16,848 bases of DNA from IMG/VR virus record IMGVR_UViG_3300027994_000001, positions 121,776 through 138,623 of that record, one strand, 5' to 3'. Source of the DNA: a virus (Duplodnaviria > Heunggongvirae > Uroviricota > Caudoviricetes). Positions 4,201-14,236 of the stretch are shown here, piece by piece (the stretch's first letter is position 1; the number at the start of each line of letters is the position of its first letter). A model generated the notes under the pieces. It was not told the DNA's origin, did not search any database, and saw only the letters and a list, made by a program, of their open reading frames with translations. A program made the translations under genes and the position numbers.

Positions 4201-4202
4201 TG

Positions 4203-4275
4203 TGGTCTCGGCAGAACTCGAATCTGCAACCTTCGCGTTATGAGCGCGCTTCTCTGCCAATTGAGATACAAGACC
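4203..4275 (-). tRNA. tRNA with CAT anticodon (elongator Met or lysidine-dependent Ile2); CCA not encoded
   Basis: GGTCTTG/CGAGACC acceptor, TCTC/GAGA D stem, loop CTCATAA, T arm GCAGA-TTCGAGT-TCTGC, discriminator A. No initiator hallmarks (paired 1:72, no triple G-C in anticodon stem). Confidence 0.93.
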
Positions 4276-6270: not shown

Positions 6271-6717
6271 TTATCTGTTATTTCTGTCTCTTACTAATGT
6301 AATATAGCTGTTAATATCTTCACGTAAATCCGCTACATTTGTAAAGTTCTCTTTATGTGTTGTTCTTTGATTTAAAAATTCTTTATATTGTTTTGTAGCG
6401 GCAGCAAACTTCTCAGCATTACTTATAGCAGGAGCTTTATCATACATCGGTTTTTCTCCCTCACTCCAAACATATTCATCACGTACCATAGCTACTGCTA
6501 TTCTCATCTTAATCGCCGTTGCACCTTTGTCTGATCTCATCTCACTGGCATTCAACATCTTAGTGTGCCAATAGCGCAAATCTGATTTTAAATCTACAAA
6601 TCTATGTTGGAATTCTAAAAGAGTTTCTTTATTATTATCTCCGGTAAGTGAAAAGTTTTTAAAATTATCCTTTATTTCATAAAACTCGGTTATAATTTCT
6701 TCAAGAGGTCTTATCAT
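6271..6717 (-). CDS. Helical protein, possible UvsY-like recombination mediator
   Basis: 148 aa, predicted all-helical, coupled directly downstream of recA; AISNAEKFAAATKQY...VADLREDINSY resembles the UvsY C-terminal helices. Function inferred. Confidence 0.4.
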   Translation of the reverse strand: MIRPLEEIITEFYEIKDNFKNFSLTGDNNKETLLEFQHRFVDLKSDLRYWHTKMLNASEMRSDKGATAIKMRIAVAMVRDEYVWSEGEKPMYDKAPAISNAEKFAAATKQYKEFLNQRTTHKENFTNVADLREDINSYITLVRDRNNR

Positions 6718-7697
6718 AATTGTTGTTTTAAAAATTCAAAATCTTCTGGATTGGCTTTTAAATGTTTTATAAAATTATCCATCCCCTGTACTTTTTGTTC
6801 TTCGCTATTTACGTCTGGAAAAGTAGTCCAACCCCCACCAGAAACTTTGGCTATATCTAACTCGCAAAATAATTGAGCGTACTCATCAATTTCATTAAAT
6901 CCTCCATCATAGTAAAAGTTTAAAGTAATAACTTCTTTTGGGTTGTAAGGGGCTAATTTAGACTTCTTAATTCTTACATCTAATTTATGACCTATTGGAT
7001 TTTTATCATCATCTAAAATAATATCTTTCTTTGTAAGTTCTAATATTAAATTAGACATTGTATACTGCCAGCCACCTCTTGAAAGTTTTCTAGGGTCGCC
7101 CATAGCACCAGGGTCTAGTTTATAGCTCGTCAGTCCTATAATAGCAATGTCCCTCTTTACGCAGTTTCCTTCAATTATTGGCATTCTAGCTGTAAATTTA
7201 CGAGCTTCAACTGCCATATTATTATCTTCGGCAGATTTAGCTTCTACAACAGATGATACAAAAACAGGAATAGAATCTAAAACAATAACACCTATCTCTT
7301 CTGCTGTTGCTATTGCTTCAACTGTATCTAGCATGTTTTCTAAATTTCTACTTTTTTCTGGAAGAAAATATTCTTTTTTAACTCCCATTCTATTCAAGTA
7401 TGATTGATCTAAAGTTCCTTCCGCATCCCAAAACATACCTATTTTACCAAGTCTTTCATTTGAGTCTTTAATGGCTTTAAGGGCAAGTGATGTTTTACCT
7501 GTACCTCCATCTGCAATTATACAATTATACCCCCCTAATACAAATCCTCCTCCAGTTCTGTAATCTAGATATGGACTACCTGTAGAAATTGTTTTTTTAA
7601 CTAAATAGTCTTCTTTTTTATCTTTTAAAAGTGTTACTTTATCTTCTTCTTTTTTATCTTTATTTAGTTTTTTTAAAACATCTTGTAAGTTGGCCAT
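6714..7697 (-). CDS. recA: RecA/UvsX-like recombinase
   Basis: ISTGSPYLD, Walker A GGTGKTS, FWDAEGTLD, Walker B VIVLDS, EARKF, KKSKLAP, F.YDGG. Confidence 0.93.
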   Translation of the reverse strand: MANLQDVLKKLNKDKKEEDKVTLLKDKKEDYLVKKTISTGSPYLDYRTGGGFVLGGYNCIIADGGTGKTSLALKAIKDSNERLGKIGMFWDAEGTLDQSYLNRMGVKKEYFLPEKSRNLENMLDTVEAIATAEEIGVIVLDSIPVFVSSVVEAKSAEDNNMAVEARKFTARMPIIEGNCVKRDIAIIGLTSYKLDPGAMGDPRKLSRGGWQYTMSNLILELTKKDIILDDDKNPIGHKLDVRIKKSKLAPYNPKEVITLNFYYDGGFNEIDEYAQLFCELDIAKVSGGGWTTFPDVNSEEQKVQGMDNFIKHLKANPEDFEFLKQQL

Positions 7698-8075
7698 TTA
7701 TTCGTATTTATCTGTTATTTTGTAATTAATTTTTTCTGTTATTTGATCTTTTATTTCCGCGAAAATTTCCTTTACTCTAGGGTATATATTCATATCTTTA
7801 ACTTTTTCTAATGACCAAGTATCAAAATTAGTGTGGCATTGTTTTGATGAGTATTGCCCGCAAAGATAAAGTACATTCAAATCATTTGTGCTTATAGATT
7901 TAAAATATCCTTTTGGAAGACAATGCGCTATTTCAGAAACATCTCCTCTCAACTTATCTCCACATTCTTCGCAATGCTTAGACTTTGCAATTTCAATATG
8001 CTTTTGAAAAAATTCTGGAAAATCTTTGCGTTCTTCTTTTCTTTTCTCTAGAGCTTTTTTGCTATATCTTTTCAT
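7698..8075 (-). CDS. Zn-binding HNH-like nuclease (NinG/Rap-like)
   Basis: CEECG...EIAHCLPKG...NVLYLC...CHTNFD: CxxC, H, N, LC..CH pattern of beta-beta-alpha-Me nucleases; directly upstream of recA. Confidence 0.7.
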   Translation of the reverse strand: MKRYSKKALEKRKEERKDFPEFFQKHIEIAKSKHCEECGDKLRGDVSEIAHCLPKGYFKSISTNDLNVLYLCGQYSSKQCHTNFDTWSLEKVKDMNIYPRVKEIFAEIKDQITEKINYKITDKYE

Positions 8076-8125: not shown

Positions 8126-8347
8126 TTATTTGTTTTTCGCGGAATTTACTGTTCTGTTTATACTTTGGCAATACGTTAATAAATCTTGGAAATGTTCAAA
8201 AGGGACTTTTATTTTGATATCGTTTTCAGAGTAATCCTCGTCTGGTACATAGTGAAGTAGAATATTATCGTCATCTTGACTTTGTATTTCCCAAAATCCT
8301 TTTTTACTTTCTCCAACACCAATTAATTTCCAGTATTTAATTATCAT
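8126..8347 (-). CDS. Hypothetical protein (73 aa)
   Basis: ORF track; ATGA overlap. Confidence 0.75.
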   Translation of the reverse strand: MIIKYWKLIGVGESKKGFWEIQSQDDDNILLHYVPDEDYSENDIKIKVPFEHFQDLLTYCQSINRTVNSAKNK

Positions 8348-8724
8348 TTTAGTATATTAATAATTTCTTGTTTTAATTTTTCTTTACCCGCAAAATCAAA
8401 GTTTTTCAAAATCCATTTTAAATATCCCTTATCGTTGTCAAATACGTATTGAACAGTTTTTGTTGAGTGTTTTCCGAAGTTAAATACTTCTAGATACTCT
8501 TTTGGATTAATATAAGGGCTTACTTCTCTTTCTTTATAGGTTTTCTTATTCCGCCGGATAAAGTCTTTTAAAAAGTCTGTTTCTGATGTTATTTCTATTC
8601 CTCCACCTGCAAATATAAGTTCATTATTCTCATTTAAATAATAATGCTTCATATTACACCACCAATGAGAACTTTTATCACGAAATTGCTTTATTTCTAC
8701 TTTAGCTTCTTTCTTCGCGACCAA
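8344..8724 (-). CDS. Hypothetical protein with DUF3820/ExoX C-terminal-like motif
   Basis: TTG start; FNFGKHSTKTVQYVFDNDKGYLKWIL matches the FGK[YH]-x-G/K...D-x-x-YL-x-W motif. Confidence 0.65.
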   Translation of the reverse strand: MVAKKEAKVEIKQFRDKSSHWWCNMKHYYLNENNELIFAGGGIEITSETDFLKDFIRRNKKTYKEREVSPYINPKEYLEVFNFGKHSTKTVQYVFDNDKGYLKWILKNFDFAGKEKLKQEIINILK

Positions 8725-9542: not shown

Positions 9543-9834
9543 CTTCTTCTGTATTTTCAGGGAAACAACCAATCCATTCCCACTGTTTTCGGTAATGATT
9601 TAAATAATAGAACTTTCCGTCCTCTCCTAAATATAGATTACGCTTTTTCTTTTTCAGTTTTCTTGTTCGTATCACTACTTTTTGCGCGACTAGTTCAGAG
9701 AATTGTTCAAATGTTACGTGTTGATAATTATCACTTTCTCTGACAGATTTAACAGTTTCTATTTGCTCCGGCGTGTATTCGAATTTAATAAGTATCTGTT
9801 CGTATAATTGCCAGTCTTGTTTGGTTGATTCCAT
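9532..9834 (-). CDS. Hypothetical protein (100 aa)
   Basis: ORF track; tightly packed. Confidence 0.75.
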   Translation of the reverse strand: MESTKQDWQLYEQILIKFEYTPEQIETVKSVRESDNYQHVTFEQFSELVAQKVVIRTRKLKKKKRNLYLGEDGKFYYLNHYRKQWEWIGCFPENTEEDGI

Positions 9835-9835
9835 A

Positions 9836-10054
9836 TTATATATTTGTTATTGCTGTGTCAAGTAGTCTTTTGTAAGCGTAGTATCCTAATTCTTCCATGT
9901 TTTCATTTTCCGCGGAGAAAAAACTTAAAAACTGATATTTTATTTTTCTGCCGATTTCCAGATAATCATTCTTAAACACTTCTTCTCCTGTAGGTTTAAA
10001 CACTTCTAAAAAGCATTCTTTACTGTCTTCTTTTTTATAATAGTACTTTCTCAT
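9836..10054 (-). CDS. Hypothetical protein (72 aa)
   Basis: ORF track; 1-bp gaps on both sides. Confidence 0.75.
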   Translation of the reverse strand: MRKYYYKKEDSKECFLEVFKPTGEEVFKNDYLEIGRKIKYQFLSFFSAENENMEELGYYAYKRLLDTAITNI

Positions 10055-10055
10055 A

Positions 10056-10370
10056 TTAATCTACTAATAGCCCTCCAACTTCGTTAACTTCTCCTTCAAA
10101 TCTTATTTCGTTATCTTGTAGGAATTTATAAAAGGCAAATACTCTATCCTTAATATTAAGGTCATTTAGCAAGTCACTTATGCAAACGTAAATATCATTC
10201 TCTCCTCCTACATACATTGATTCACCAACTTCAAAATAATAGTAATTAGTATTTTCTAATACATCATCCAAATAAGTTGTAAAATCTTCATAGTACTCAC
10301 TATTTTCATCAAATTCCTTTCTTATTACTTTAACACCAATTCCATAATTTCCTGTATAATCTACTCCCAT
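10056..10370 (-). CDS. Acidic hypothetical protein (104 aa)
   Basis: The TTG at 10388 in the ORF track lies inside the promoter -7 box, so ATG at 10370 is preferred. Confidence 0.75.
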   Translation of the reverse strand: MGVDYTGNYGIGVKVIRKEFDENSEYYEDFTTYLDDVLENTNYYYFEVGESMYVGGENDIYVCISDLLNDLNIKDRVFAFYKFLQDNEIRFEGEVNEVGGLLVD

Positions 10371-10385
10371 GATCTTTATTTTAAA

Positions 10386-10417
10386 CAAATTTACAATTAA
10401 TAATTGAAATAACCTAA
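10386..10417 (-). promoter_or_regulatory. Bacteroidota-type promoter for the small-ORF early operon
   Basis: TTAG-N20-TAAATTTG; shares TTAGGTTATwTCAAT with the 2652-2683 promoter. Confidence 0.7.
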
Positions 10418-10544
10418 TGAAATCTAATTTAATTTCATATTTTTTGTATAATATTTTGCCGCCCTATTATTTATCTGTTTTTGTTGTTTACGAATATAGT
10501 TTGGCAGCAGACTAAAGACAAAGAGAATCAAAACGGATATTACC

Positions 10545-10778
10545 ACGTACTCTACTTCAAACCGAAACTATGCGCAAACTGAGTAACTAGATACTTAAAT
10601 GCCCTGCTCGGGCGGAGGTTAACCAAGCTACTGCGCTTCGCTTCGTATCTCGTTAACTAACCTATTATTTTTCTTTTATCTGTTTTGAAGTAGAGTACGT
10701 AAGTAATGGCTTCGCCTTTCGGTCGTTCCTCCCTCACTAAAGGATTTATTTTTTATTGGAGCTAAAGCTCCCGCTCCA
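10545..10778. other. Candidate replication origin / primosome assembly (ssi-type) element
   Basis: Perfect 17-bp inverted repeat 10545-10561/10684-10700; GCGAAGC mini-hairpins on minus strand (in 10628-10643 and 10708-10716); GC-rich hairpins 10601-10613 and 10757-10778; located near the strand switch. Confidence 0.5.
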
Positions 10779-10789
10779 TAGGATAACTT

Positions 10790-11070
10790 TAAGAATTTAA
10801 ATTTTGGCTGAATAATCAACCTTCAGGCGGAAATAGTGTAAAAACACCTCCTTGTCCCTTTAGCTTAAGTCCAGGAAATAAAATTCCTTTTCCGCAACAT
10901 GAGCGAATCCAATCGCAGCTCCATGTTATTAAACGCGAAAAATCCTTGTAAAACTAACAGCATAATATGGAACCGGCTGTATAACGTTTTAGAAAGGATT
11001 TTTCTTATTGTTATGATATTAGTAATTATGGTTCCATCCAATAATAACTATCTTATATTTTAATGCTATC
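10790..11070 (-). ncRNA. Candidate structured non-coding transcript
   Basis: Directly downstream of promoter 11074-11105, no minus-strand ORF of 60 aa or more, many stems, and crossed pairings 10938-10947/10994-11003 and 10967-10974/11030-11037. Confidence 0.45.
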
Positions 11071-11073
11071 CTG

Positions 11074-11105
11074 CAAAGGTAAGCATTATGTTTTGATTCT
11101 GCAAG
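11074..11105 (-). promoter_or_regulatory. Bacteroidota sigma-A promoter
   Basis: CTTG-N20-TACCTTTG. Confidence 0.7.
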
Positions 11106-11209
11106 CTTTTCAGTAGATTTTTTATGATGATTTGTAAAATAAGTTTTTTAGTCTTATGAAACCCTCACTAATACGTCCTTTTTAACGATTCATCTACTTT
11201 AATTATACG

Positions 11210-11241
11210 CAAACTTACAAAAATAAAATTTAATGTGCAAA
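11210..11241 (-). promoter_or_regulatory. Bacteroidota sigma-A promoter
   Basis: Exact TTTG-N20-TAAGTTTG. Confidence 0.8.
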
Positions 11242-11245
11242 TTAC

Positions 11246-11500
11246 TTAATTTTTGTTGAAGTCTATTTCTTCCCCGCCATCAAAAACTTCCGGCTTAAAG
11301 AGAAATAAATTATAAAAGAACAGCTTAAGATTTTCCGCATAAACAGATTCATGAACATTCTTAGATTCATACTTCCTGAATAAAGAGAAAGTAAGCGTCT
11401 TAATAAATTCTGCATTCTGTTCCCTATACTGAAAAGAGACATCACTATAACTAATATAATGATTCCATATACGTGAATAAAAATCGTCGTAAGCAAGCAT
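11246..11500 (-). CDS. Hypothetical protein (84 aa)
   Basis: ORF track; has its own consensus promoter just upstream; aromatic-rich. Confidence 0.7.
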   Translation of the reverse strand: MLAYDDFYSRIWNHYISYSDVSFQYREQNAEFIKTLTFSLFRKYESKNVHESVYAENLKLFFYNLFLFKPEVFDGGEEIDFNKN

Positions 11501-11524
11501 AATTCTTTGGTTTTAATTATAGTG

Positions 11525-11556
11525 CAAATATATAAAATAATAATTTAAAACGCAAA
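11525..11556 (-). promoter_or_regulatory. Bacteroidota sigma-A promoter
   Basis: Exact TTTG-N20-TATATTTG. Confidence 0.8.
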
Positions 11557-11673
11557 TTACTTAATTTTAGACCACACCCATACAAAATAAATTAATACAA
11601 AACTCTTAACGAAAAGTTAATTGATTAGGATATATCAATCTAATTGATTTATTTTGTAGTCTAAGAGCATTAA

Positions 11674-12123
11674 ATGGACGAAAAAGATATAAAAATAAAG
11701 CAGTTAGAAGCACAACTTTTAAAATTTAAAGAGCCTTTGAATGCCCTTAATATTAAAGTAAGTTCTAAAAATACGATAGAGAGGTTAGATAAATTCCTGA
11801 CCGCATACGCTGAATTAAAAATGACGGAAGAAAACAGACTTCTGCCGTCCCACAAACCAATTTTACTATATTATTTGGCGAAAGGTATTACAGATGAAGT
11901 ACTTCAAACTATTTTAGATGATAATCCTGAGCGGGAAAAAGTAAAAAAAGGAAAACAGCTTACAAGAAATCACCTACATACAATTAATAAAAAATTAAGA
12001 GACAGAGGATATCTAATAAAAGACGAAAAGAATTATCAAAAATTCAAATTATCTCCAGATTTAGAAGCAATAAGAAAAAAAGTATTAGAAGAAAATTGTA
12101 AATTAATTCTATTAATGTTTTAA
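11674..12123 (+). CDS. Probable winged-helix DNA-binding protein
   Basis: LLPSHKPILLYYL...LTRNHLHTINKKLRDRGYLIKDEKN...FKLSP fits recognition helix plus wing (L-x-x-[KR]GY[LI]); first gene of the rightward module. Confidence 0.5.
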   Translation: MDEKDIKIKQLEAQLLKFKEPLNALNIKVSSKNTIERLDKFLTAYAELKMTEENRLLPSHKPILLYYLAKGITDEVLQTILDDNPEREKVKKGKQLTRNHLHTINKKLRDRGYLIKDEKNYQKFKLSPDLEAIRKKVLEENCKLILLMF

Positions 12124-12124
12124 A

Positions 12125-12589
12125 ATGACCCAGTTAAGTTACTTAGATGATATCTTAAAAGAAGTATTTCGAAAACACAAACTGAAATATGATTATAAAC
12201 AGTCACTAGACGGAGTAAAATGGATGTTTGAATACATCGTAAGTGAAACTAAGAATCCAGAAGTATTTGCAATTGATTTACCATATTTAGGGCATTTGTA
12301 CAAAAACAAACATTTTGTAATAAACAGTAAAAAAAATATGGATGTCGGATCAGAAACTTACAAACAAGTGGAAGATCAGATACAGCAATTAAAGAGATTT
12401 GCAGATGAAAATGGGTGGAATACACCACATAATAAAATGCCATTCTTCTATAGTTTCAATAAATATATTTGTGATAGATTTGAAATAACAGACGTAGCGC
12501 GAAAGATGCATAAACCAAGTCATCAAATTTACGCCGCAACAGAATACATACAGAATAAAGATTATAAACGCCTAACAGAAAACAAATAA
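12125..12589 (+). CDS. HU/IHF-like DNA-binding protein with C-terminal extension
   Basis: DDILKEVFRKH helix, second helix, then IDLPYLGHLYKN ~ the HU V-x-L-x-GFG-x-F strand. Confidence 0.5.
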   Translation: MTQLSYLDDILKEVFRKHKLKYDYKQSLDGVKWMFEYIVSETKNPEVFAIDLPYLGHLYKNKHFVINSKKNMDVGSETYKQVEDQIQQLKRFADENGWNTPHNKMPFFYSFNKYICDRFEITDVARKMHKPSHQIYAATEYIQNKDYKRLTENK

Positions 12590-12592
12590 AAA

Positions 12593-14236
12593 TTGAAGAA
12601 TAAAGTAGTATACGGCGCAGAAGCCAGAAAATATTTAAAAAAAGGAGTAGACTTAGTAGCAAACCCAGTTAAGGTAACATTAGGGGCAAAAGGATTAAAC
12701 GTAATGTGCGTGAGAGACTTGCTTTTACCTATTGTCACTAAAGATGGAGTTTCTGTAGCTAAGGAAGTAGAATCGAATAATCCAATAATTAGCGCCGGAG
12801 TTTCATTAATTAAACAGGTTTCGAGTCAGACGAATGACTTAGCCGGCGACGGGACAACATCTAGTGTAGTGCTTGCTCAGGCTATTGTTAATGAAGCAGA
12901 TAAAGTGCTAAATGAAGGAACTAACGCGATATCTTTAAAAAGAGGATTAGATTTAGCTCTAGATTTTTCTTTAAAACACTTACAAAAACTTAAAAATAAA
13001 TCAAGTAGTTTAAAGACACTTAAAAACATTGCCAATATTTCAACTAACGGAGATAAAGAAATTGCAGATTTAGTCTTAGGAGCGGTAAACAAAGTAGGTA
13101 AAACTGGAACAATAAGAGTTGAAGAAACGGATGATTTAGTTTCGAGCGTTTTTGTTGCCGATGGATATGAACTTGATGTACCATACGCTCTTGCAGAATT
13201 CATTAATGACAGAGAAAAATTTGAAGCTGTTTTTGAAGATATGAATGTTTTAATTTATCAGGGTCATCTTAAGGAAGCTTCGCAATTAAATCAAGCTATT
13301 AGATTATCAACACTACCATCCCAACAAGAGGATAAAGATGGAGAGTTTCAAGGTCTTTTGGTTATTTGTGATAATATTTCAGGACACGTACAAAAAGAAA
13401 TATTAGAGTGGAGTTATAGAGGATTCAATTTAATGAATTTAAGATCACCTAGTTTCGGCGGAAGAAAAAATGAAACACTAAAAGATATTGCGGCCTTGAT
13501 AGGAGCAAAAGTATATAGTGAAGATTTAGGGGATAACTTAGATGAAGTTACCGCAGAAGGACTAGGACACATTGATAAAGTGATTTCAGATGCTAATAAA
13601 TCTATATTAATCGGCGGAAAAGGAAATGAAAAGGAAATAAAAGAAAGAACAGCAATAGTAAAAGAACAGATAAAAAACATCACCGGAGGAAAGACAGAAA
13701 CAGAATTCGTAAAAGAAAGATATTCTAAACTAACCAAAGGAGTTGCTGTAATCAAAGTAGGGGGATATTCTACGCCTGAGAAAAGAGAAAAGACAGACAG
13801 AGTAGAAGATGCACTATGTGCAGTTAGAGCCTGTTTAGAAGAAGGATATGTAGCAGGCGGAGGTGTAACTTATTTGAATATCTCCCATGCCCTTAAATCG
13901 GCTAAAATAGAAACTAGAAATCAAGATGAACAGAAAGGAATTGAAGTATTAGTAAAAGCCCTTGAAGCACCTTTCAGACAGATTTTAGAAAATGCCGGAA
14001 TGCAGGAAGAAACAGAAAACTACATTAAAAACATTCAAAGCTCTCAATATTATGGAGACGGAATAGATTTACAAACACAAGAATATGTAGATTTATTTAA
14101 AAGAGGAATAATCGACCCCACAAAAGTAGAAAGACTGGCTCTTCAAAATGCAGTATCTATTTCTGGAACGTTTTTAACACTTGGGGCAATTACTTATAAT
14201 AGTACACCAATATTTTCAGCAAATGGGCAGAAGTAA
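12593..14236 (+). CDS. groEL: Phage chaperonin GroEL
   Basis: 547 aa, TTG start; VKVTLGAKG, TKDGVSVAKE, AGDGTTS, AVIKVGG, DRVEDAL...EEGYVAGGG, GIIDPTKV. No GGM tail. Confidence 0.97.
   Translation: MKNKVVYGAEARKYLKKGVDLVANPVKVTLGAKGLNVMCVRDLLLPIVTKDGVSVAKEVESNNPIISAGVSLIKQVSSQTNDLAGDGTTSSVVLAQAIVNEADKVLNEGTNAISLKRGLDLALDFSLKHLQKLKNKSSSLKTLKNIANISTNGDKEIADLVLGAVNKVGKTGTIRVEETDDLVSSVFVADGYELDVPYALAEFINDREKFEAVFEDMNVLIYQGHLKEASQLNQAIRLSTLPSQQEDKDGEFQGLLVICDNISGHVQKEILEWSYRGFNLMNLRSPSFGGRKNETLKDIAALIGAKVYSEDLGDNLDEVTAEGLGHIDKVISDANKSILIGGKGNEKEIKERTAIVKEQIKNITGGKTETEFVKERYSKLTKGVAVIKVGGYSTPEKREKTDRVEDALCAVRACLEEGYVAGGGVTYLNISHALKSAKIETRNQDEQKGIEVLVKALEAPFRQILENAGMQEETENYIKNIQSSQYYGDGIDLQTQEYVDLFKRGIIDPTKVERLALQNAVSISGTFLTLGAITYNSTPIFSANGQK

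Follow-up and report, generated by a model that had tools for sequence, protein, structure and literature searches.

A likely gene for a large structured RNA that alternates with a winged-helix protein gene in Bacteroidota-type phages

The final 16.8 kb of the 138,623-bp IMG/VR virus record IMGVR_UViG_3300027994_000001, a Caudoviricetes genome rated complete, contain a gene-free gap whose minus-sense strand carries a conserved, folded element behind a conserved promoter (gap coordinates 10389-11245; here and below, positions are those of the window, the whole 16,848-nucleotide (nt) stretch analysed, which spans record positions 121,776 to 138,623). We think it likely, with a probability of roughly 0.7, that this gap encodes a large structured phage RNA of a new class, made early from a host-type promoter and acting as a folded RNA. 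The gene would run from about 11071 to 10452 on the minus strand (~620 nt), at the head of a leftward (early, or DNA-metabolism) arm of the genome, with host RNA polymerase transcribing it from one predicted promoter (P2) and a second (P1) adding input in some lineages. Its first ~140 nt would be a leader, and the remaining ~455-480 nt would make up two multi-helix domains joined by variable hairpins. On the model of other large phage-borne ornate RNAs, the molecule would work in trans, for example as a scaffold, a decoy, or an RNA-only or RNA-protein assembly in host takeover, and would not be the replication origin. It would also be an interchangeable cassette, the alternative being a winged-helix gene of ~300 amino acids (aa) with the same promoter and leader.

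Fold, conservation and promoters of the element

The gap lies between two minus-strand open reading frames (ORFs; 10056-10388 and 11246-11500) in a genome of which 93% is covered by same-strand ORFs, and it is the second-largest uncovered stretch of that genome (875 nt by an ATG, 50-aa criterion). A preliminary description of the window, made from the sequence alone, had pointed to this ORF-free stretch, and our analysis bears it out: no frame exceeds 58 aa, and no credible ORF was found in the gap, where the largest frames (58, 54, 47 and 40 aa, most of them starting at TTG or GTG) are judged non-coding because they are interrupted in relatives by indels of 1-2 nt. The G+C content of the region is 0.35-0.40, compared with 0.27-0.30 in its flanks. 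Folded as RNA, the minus strand reaches -171.3 kcal/mol (z = -4.5 against shuffled sequences) and the plus strand -150 kcal/mol (z = -3.2). The largest ORF-free stretch of the genome (genome 112813-113774, equal to L012:16814-17775; 962 nt), which is without a tRNA and without an Rfam match, has a fold z of -0.2.

Relatives of the element were recovered by several routes. Four sister genomes were found via GroEL, and two of them (contigs L004 and L005) align across the entire gap; a block of ~150 nt at its core is almost invariant in close relatives, compared with ~76% identity of the coding flanks. Further copies, sought with a covariance model of this block (R1) and two DNA-pattern scans, are present in the JGI metagenome contigs L095, L099, L100 and L101 and in the IMG/VR contig L149, and homologues of the downstream ORF led to the element in an ENA contig (L123, which equals L099 over the compared region) and in a contig from an NCBI metagenome-assembled genome (MAG; L117). 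The element is therefore known from four lineages of uncultured phages, namely that of the window, the L004 type (L004, L005, L095, L100, L101 and L149), L099 with L123, and L117, between which its identity is 82-85% (core, 87-90%) compared with 75-78% for adjacent genes; the flanking genes vary among these lineages. Beyond them, a 'distant' blastn search of 50,697 phage records gave no match to the region, the downstream 110-aa ORF retrieved no close relatives from IMG/VR, and a 149-aa neighbour retrieved only the same four genomes. A GroEL profile led to 80 unrelated phage loci, none with the RNA (one match, in L083, had E = 0.09 and was treated as chance), and a scan of genome contigs with a 19-mer from the second domain gave seven matches in unrelated MAG or genome records not labelled as Bacteroidota, none of which fits R1.

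Consensus folding of seven sequences with RNAalifold yielded approximately 20 helices comprising 140 pairs. Compensatory changes are present in 17 of the 140 (2-4 when the 3' partners were slid by 1-3 columns), and 94.5% of the cells of this fold are paired, compared with 41-45% in the slid controls. For the core, a model-guided alignment leaves 99.7% of cells paired (42-50% when slid), with four pairs changed on both sides, a pairing result that was equalled in 1 of 500 shuffles. The consensus fold contains 117 G.U cells and 10 A.C cells and, because G.U is so far above A.C, the structure is assigned to the minus-sense strand; together with the fold energy and the compensatory pairs, this agrees with the hairpin-dense leftward transcript that had been proposed for the gap. 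A long-range helix suggested by RNAalifold (10872-10860 with 10527-10516) was rejected, as eight of its cells are non-canonical and in three lineages only one side changes.

The leader (10930-11071, minus strand, as are all parts of the element) has two hairpins, 11049-11038/11031-11020 and 10995-10984/10954-10941, the second enclosing 10978-10974/10962-10956, and its helices hold five, one and one compensatory pairs. It is followed by core domain A (10795-10948), the most conserved block and the basis of model R1, with seven helices and the invariant unpaired stretch GGACUUAAGCUAAAGGGA-AAGGAGG; CUCCGCCCGAG is another of the long unpaired stretches that do not vary. A variable linker (10706-10790) then carries the motif GAGGGAGGAACGACCGAA and two hairpins, one of which is GGAGC-UUUA-GCUCC in the window. 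The other is short and lineage-specific: in the window it reads GGC-GAA-GCC and holds the GCGAAGC of 10709-10715, and elsewhere it reads CGC-GUAA-GCG, CCAACU-GGAU-AGUUGG, CCCACU-GGAU-AGUGGG or AUCC-GUUA-GGGU. This short hairpin is one of two that keep their position and differ wholly in sequence from lineage to lineage, and one of its versions has a GUAA tetraloop. In L004 (approximately L004:4165-4190, minus strand), and also in L005, L095 and L100, GGAGC-UUUA-GCUCC is replaced by the G-rich GGGGG-UUU-GGGGG-UGAGG, which is not conserved across lineages and could form a G-quadruplex or pair elsewhere.

Domain B (10540-10705) is closed by a 25-bp helix (10705-10680/10564-10540), the centre of which is a perfect 17-nt inverted repeat (10545-10561/10684-10700). 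Its junction holds the helices 10661-10658/10621-10618 and 10652-10645/10631-10624, a GCG(A/U)AGC motif (10635-10641) and a GCCC-GAGYA-GGGC hairpin (10613-10601), and one extra hairpin at about 10582-10598 is confined to the window. The element ends with a 3' terminal hairpin, UGCCGCC ... GGCGGCA (10452-10512), which has two compensatory pairs and is followed by an A-rich tail with no U-tract; no terminator-like site was found on the minus strand between 10400 and 11245. Searches of Rfam with the window and its relatives, at gathering and at permissive thresholds, matched no family (the best match in the region had E = 0.74 and 17.9 bits, to an unrelated small-RNA model) and gave no match that was consistent across relatives. 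ARAGORN found no tRNA or transfer-messenger RNA (tmRNA) in the RNA region.

Promoters were called at the level of motif and conservation, with TTTG-N17-21-TAnnTTTG as the strict Bacteroidota pattern, which occurs at 19 sites in the genome compared with 6.3 +/- 1.8 in shuffles. P2, the predicted promoter of the RNA (11074-11105, minus strand; CTTG...TACCTTTG in the window), departs from the strict pattern by one base in the window, whereas its relatives match perfectly, and all four lineages keep its -33 and -7 boxes around a variable spacer. P1 (11210-11241, minus strand; TTTG-N20-TAAGTTTG), from the pattern scan and the alignments, matches the strict consensus; the window and the L004-type lineage have it, L099 does not conserve it and L117 lacks it. 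The two leftward promoters that had been proposed are thus upheld as motifs. Between them lies a weakly structured accessory 5' segment (11106-11204, minus strand) found in three of the four lineages: two have P1 with these ~100 nt behind it, L099 has the segment without P1, and L117 has neither. Since P1 and the segment come and go and P2 is present in all four lineages, the constant unit begins at P2. The accessory segment may pair with 10516-10540 (two compensatory pairs); that it is a separate folded small RNA was rejected, its consensus fold being merely -1.4 kcal/mol.

Another strict Bacteroidota-type site found by the pattern scan, P0 (11525-11556, minus strand; TTTG-N20-TATATTTG), would serve the 84-aa upstream ORF (11246-11500). 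According to blastn and reading of the sequence, P0 and P1 have a common upstream motif, AAGTAATTTGC (minus strand, 11553-11567 and 11237-11251), and judged from sequence this extended motif looks like that of a phage-specific promoter family; blastn side matches also place P0/P1-like promoter sequence elsewhere in relatives (for example, L003:13390-13437). A sigma-70 scan of the gap region returned nothing special. On the far side of the element, the downstream ORF (10056-10388, minus strand; 104-110 aa, no known family) has, as had been claimed, a predicted promoter of its own, P3, with a -7 box (TAAATTTG, 10386-10393, minus strand) that is conserved in relatives. This ORF is the one that comes after the RNA in three of the lineages (the window, L099 and L117) but not in the fourth, the L004 type; in other phages, most of its homologues lack such an RNA upstream.

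Exchange with a winged-helix protein gene

Model R1 has no match anywhere in the complete sister genome G002 (contig L003), in which a 310-aa ORF (L003:3403-4332, minus strand) occupies the slot of the RNA. P2 is retained in L003, as are ~165 nt from the start of the transcript, and on the sequence the leader would there be the 5' untranslated region of the winged-helix gene. In the alignment, the ATG of that gene coincides with the place where the RNA core has its first hairpin, one half of the 3' terminal hairpin survives downstream, and the junctions of the exchange are sharp. The same protein is encoded in the Logan contig L116 (its 85-aa upstream ORF shares 93% identity with that of the window), along with a T5orf172/MUG113 endonuclease gene. 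Among the four complete close genomes, G000 (that of the window), G003 and G004 have the RNA without the protein and G002 has the protein without the RNA; in these four, RNA and protein are mutually exclusive. R1 was also found in none of the 11 protein-type related records besides G002. The idea that the RNA is a decayed copy of the protein gene was rejected, as the protein profile finds nothing in G000.

A rival reading takes the element for a cis-acting leader or processing platform: it would form the start of a polycistronic early transcript and, instead of acting in trans, would control the stability, termination or translation of what lies downstream. The ~140 nt that precede the winged-helix gene in relatives, and the lack of a terminator after the RNA, fit such an arrangement. 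The downstream ORF, on the other hand, has its own conserved promoter box, the gene that follows changes between lineages while the RNA stays constant, ~455-620 nt with two ornate domains are far above known leaders, and Rfam yielded no riboswitch or leader family, so we hold a cis-acting role to be quite improbable.

The winged-helix protein belongs to a family of at least 126 members, all unnamed and of ~300 aa, whose gene is the first or second after the switch of strand and GC skew in each of eight IMG/VR records of 106-146 kb. An AlphaFold2 (AF2) model (pLDDT 87.5) has an N-terminal winged helix, a long helix of 38 residues and a C-terminal alpha/beta domain. Foldseek and VIA, run on the model as a whole, gave generic winged-helix similarity only (residues ~6-117, best Z 5.9). 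A plasmid initiator and Cdc6 are among the structural look-alikes of this N-terminal part, at Z 5.0-5.4, but ordinary regulators score equally well, and the comparison does not separate a regulator from an initiator. Look-alikes in the Atlas are phage HTH_36/HTH_24 proteins. Pfam, PHROGs, NCBIfam, a PDB sequence search and tblastn against phages revealed nothing on its function, and no iterons were found inside or beside the winged-helix gene of relatives. By its modelled structure, the slot protein is a DNA-binding protein. It is conceivable, and in our view rather doubtful, that the RNA is a functional stand-in for the protein that heads this arm across a family of 130-146-kb phages: one genus would have replaced an early function based on protein by an ornate RNA, using the same promoter and leader, and the function could be origin activation (by an R-loop or primer) or the reprogramming of transcription.

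Other genes also lie at or beside the slot in relatives. Genes for tRNAs occupy this spot in L142 (L142:3182-3727; five, for Tyr, Ser, Ser, Asn and Phe) and L139 (L139:3577-3649; tRNA-Gln), where they immediately precede the winged-helix gene. Free-standing homing-endonuclease genes adjoin the slot in L116 (L116:2257-2946; T5orf172/MUG113), L117 (L117:1063-1854; GIY-YIG), L120 (L120:1979-2785; Endonuclease_7 with DUF723) and L121 (L121:1103-2107; RRXRR; also in L122). Four different endonuclease families beside one slot suggest a hotspot of endonuclease-driven cassette exchange. These genes and the sharp junctions of the exchange are also what would be expected if the RNA were a remnant or cargo of a mobile element (intron-like or associated with a homing endonuclease), kept because it travels with the cassette and not because it serves the phage. 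We give that possibility very low odds: no host gene or exon is interrupted, no intron in Rfam matches at E <= 10, no endonuclease gene adjoins the RNA in the window, and the RNA has its own conserved promoter and is under purifying selection above that on neighbouring genes.

Replication and the nature of the folded strand

In this genome (32% G+C), rightward genes run from window ~11674 across the record ends to ~57 kb and leftward genes from ~57 kb to window ~11500, and the cumulative GC skew of the whole genome peaks at ~56 kb and reaches its minimum at genome ~133-134 kb (window ~11.2-12.2 kb); the element lies 0.3-1 kb inside the leftward arm, adjoining both this minimum and the point at which the arms diverge. 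The preliminary description had proposed an RNA-primed R-loop origin with a phiX-like primosome site. On that view, the transcript from P1 and P2 would stay paired with its template and, once processed, prime leading-strand synthesis in the leftward direction; the minus-sense strand that it displaces would form hairpins on which the host primosome is loaded. The proximity of the skew minimum and of the arm divergence speaks for this proposal, as do tandem strong predicted promoters that point into the element; the same slot in relatives is filled by a winged-helix DNA-binding protein, weakly like a plasmid initiator or Cdc6, which the RNA-bearing genomes lack; and the pairing evidence suits displaced single-stranded DNA (ssDNA) as much as RNA.

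Support for such an origin is positional, and several results run against it, so we consider it unlikely. The element is missing from G002 and from the 11 related records, so that the structural conservation foreseen by the preliminary description holds for four lineages, with compensatory pairs, and fails in these genomes. The skew minimum, which was to be looked for on the full genome, is indeed near; protein-type relatives show the skew switch as well, and it falls where gene orientation and transcription direction flip. No iterons were found, repeat families do not go beyond weak two-copy matches, 10300-11700 holds no tandem repeats, and there is no DnaA-like box within 9728-13303. At motif level, the plus strand of 10394-11245 has no antisense TAnnTTTG box. 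The block is G+C-enriched (0.35-0.40) rather than an AT-rich unwinding element, and its RNA-sense GC skew (+0.09, compared with +0.2 to +0.5 in flanking genes) makes its G richness ordinary; runs of three or more G occur at 8.1 per kb in the RNA and 4.9 per kb in the arm, with G5 tracts confined to the L004 type and no G-tract conserved. Finally, approximately 20 conserved helices with invariant unpaired blocks are more than a primer requires.

The proposed primosome hairpins fared unevenly. GCGAAGC is present on the minus strand at 10635-10641 and 10709-10715, as is the 17-bp inverted repeat, both in the region for which they had been claimed, and the window has three copies of the motif compared with 0.53 expected (at least three in 4 of 200 shuffles). 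The inverted repeat does not stand alone as a site: it closes a conserved RNA domain of several helices. We know of no sequence consensus for recognition by PriA. The two minus-sense motifs resemble the d(GCGAAGC) mini-hairpin of the phiX174-type primosome assembly site, but the copy at 10709-10715 is lineage-specific, being swapped for unrelated hairpins in relatives, and the other, which is GCGUAGC in L099, lies within an RNA junction that is conserved.

Known RNA-primed origins and promoter-dependent phage origins offer partial parallels. ColE1 RNA II is a promoter-driven, structured pre-primer of ~0.5-0.6 kb with hairpins downstream on the non-template strand, and the phage element likewise has a predicted promoter, a folded transcript of ~620 nt and non-template-strand hairpins. 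Unlike ColE1, it lacks an antisense-RNA promoter motif and a conserved G-run/C-run hybrid anchor, and some sister replicons do without it. In the T7 primary origin and in T4 oriF and oriG, an AT-rich unwinding element lies downstream of the promoter. The phage locus is similar in that one or more promoters read into a non-coding stretch near the start of the early region, but there the downstream block is the most G+C-rich, structured and conserved part of the neighbourhood.

A related account would make the element a matter of DNA only (a packaging site, a single-strand initiation site or a protein-binding array), with transcription incidental. It draws on the identity in sequence of the RNA and the non-template strand and on the nearness of the arm junction. 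It has to contend with a promoter conserved exactly upstream, with GNRA-type and other RNA-typical hairpin replacements, with G.U-rich helices (117 cells) that would be weaker as G.T in DNA, with the location of the 127-bp terminal repeat away from the element and with the absence of the element from relatives, and we find it very improbable.

Several points weigh against a trans-acting RNA gene, the reading we prefer. No intrinsic terminator follows the RNA, which may be part of a longer transcript. The power of the covariation analysis is limited, as there are four lineages only, two of which supply most of the variation, and a number of helices are constant throughout. Pairing by itself does not distinguish a fold of RNA from one of ssDNA, because the displaced non-template strand has the same sequence, and a replication role would also be compatible with the position next to the skew minimum and with the fact that the element takes the place of a DNA-binding protein. 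Three features favour RNA over ssDNA as the folded strand, namely the G.U-rich helices, the GNRA-type replacement and the conservation of the promoter.

Neighbouring genes, known large RNAs and significance

The arm headed by the element contains genes of DNA and RNA metabolism, among them those for a RecA-like protein, a DnaB-like helicase, an Rnl1-type RNA ligase and a reverse transcriptase. Within the window, it includes a RecA-like ATPase (6714-7697, minus strand), a small ORF with a weak match to an HNH-endonuclease PHROG (7698-8075, minus strand), an ORF with an ExoX-like C-terminal motif (8344-8724, minus strand) and, in a 383-nt gap after a 281-aa ORF, a gene for tRNA-Met (CAT; 4202-4275, minus strand, 61.6 bits), which is the sole find of ARAGORN in the window and has a sister-phage counterpart at L135:7406-7480. 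The rightward arm starts with a gene for a GroEL-like chaperonin (12593-14236, plus strand; Cpn60_TCP1, E = 2e-62), at most 37% identical to that of any isolate phage. Farther along the leftward arm are a T4 Rnl1-type RNA ligase (genome 98313-99305, minus strand), a protein with a GmrSD_N domain (genome 70494-71327, minus strand) and one with a BT4734-like N-terminal domain (genome 65105-66019, minus strand), which together hint at tRNA repair and at an interplay of nucleic-acid modification and defence.

The reverse transcriptase (genome 93382-94332, minus strand, equal to L011:17383-18360; 316-325 aa; RVT_1, E = 8e-17) is part of a diversity-generating retroelement outside the window. Nearly all differences within its repeat pair (L011:18439-18498 and L011:18589-18648; 60 nt, 78% identical) are at T, or A on the coding strand, in the copy proximal to the reverse transcriptase, and the distal copy is within the 3' end of a 187-aa ORF (L011:18517-19080, minus strand) that is the likely variable target. 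A link between this enzyme and the RNA was rejected, since the retroelement has its own template repeat and lies 39 kb off.

Few large folded RNAs of unknown function are known from bacteria and phages (ROOL, GOLLD, OLE and similar ones), and each opened new RNA structural biology. The element shares with ROOL and GOLLD a size class of ~0.5-0.8 kb, many helices, conserved unpaired blocks, carriage by phages and sporadic occurrence, as well as tRNA genes in the equivalent locus of relatives. It differs from them in its Bacteroidota-type promoters and in alternating with a protein gene at one locus, and it is not counted as a member of either class, given that no Rfam family reached E = 0.7. ROOL and GOLLD themselves are large ornate non-coding RNAs, often of phages or prophages and near tRNA genes, that form RNA-only multimeric assemblies (PMC12286853; PMC5737381). 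With phage tRNA clusters and stable early RNAs, the element shares its niche, the head of the same arm in L142 and L139, but contains nothing tRNA-like or tmRNA-like.

If our reading is correct, it adds to these a large folded RNA from Bacteroidota-type phages, with covariation and a defined predicted promoter. The locus, beside the GC-skew minimum, may also have a role in replication. The sister phages also present a natural experiment, in that the same promoter and leader would drive an RNA in some and a winged-helix protein in another, and because their phenotypes can be compared and the cassettes exchanged, the swap between RNA and protein would provide a direct handle on function.

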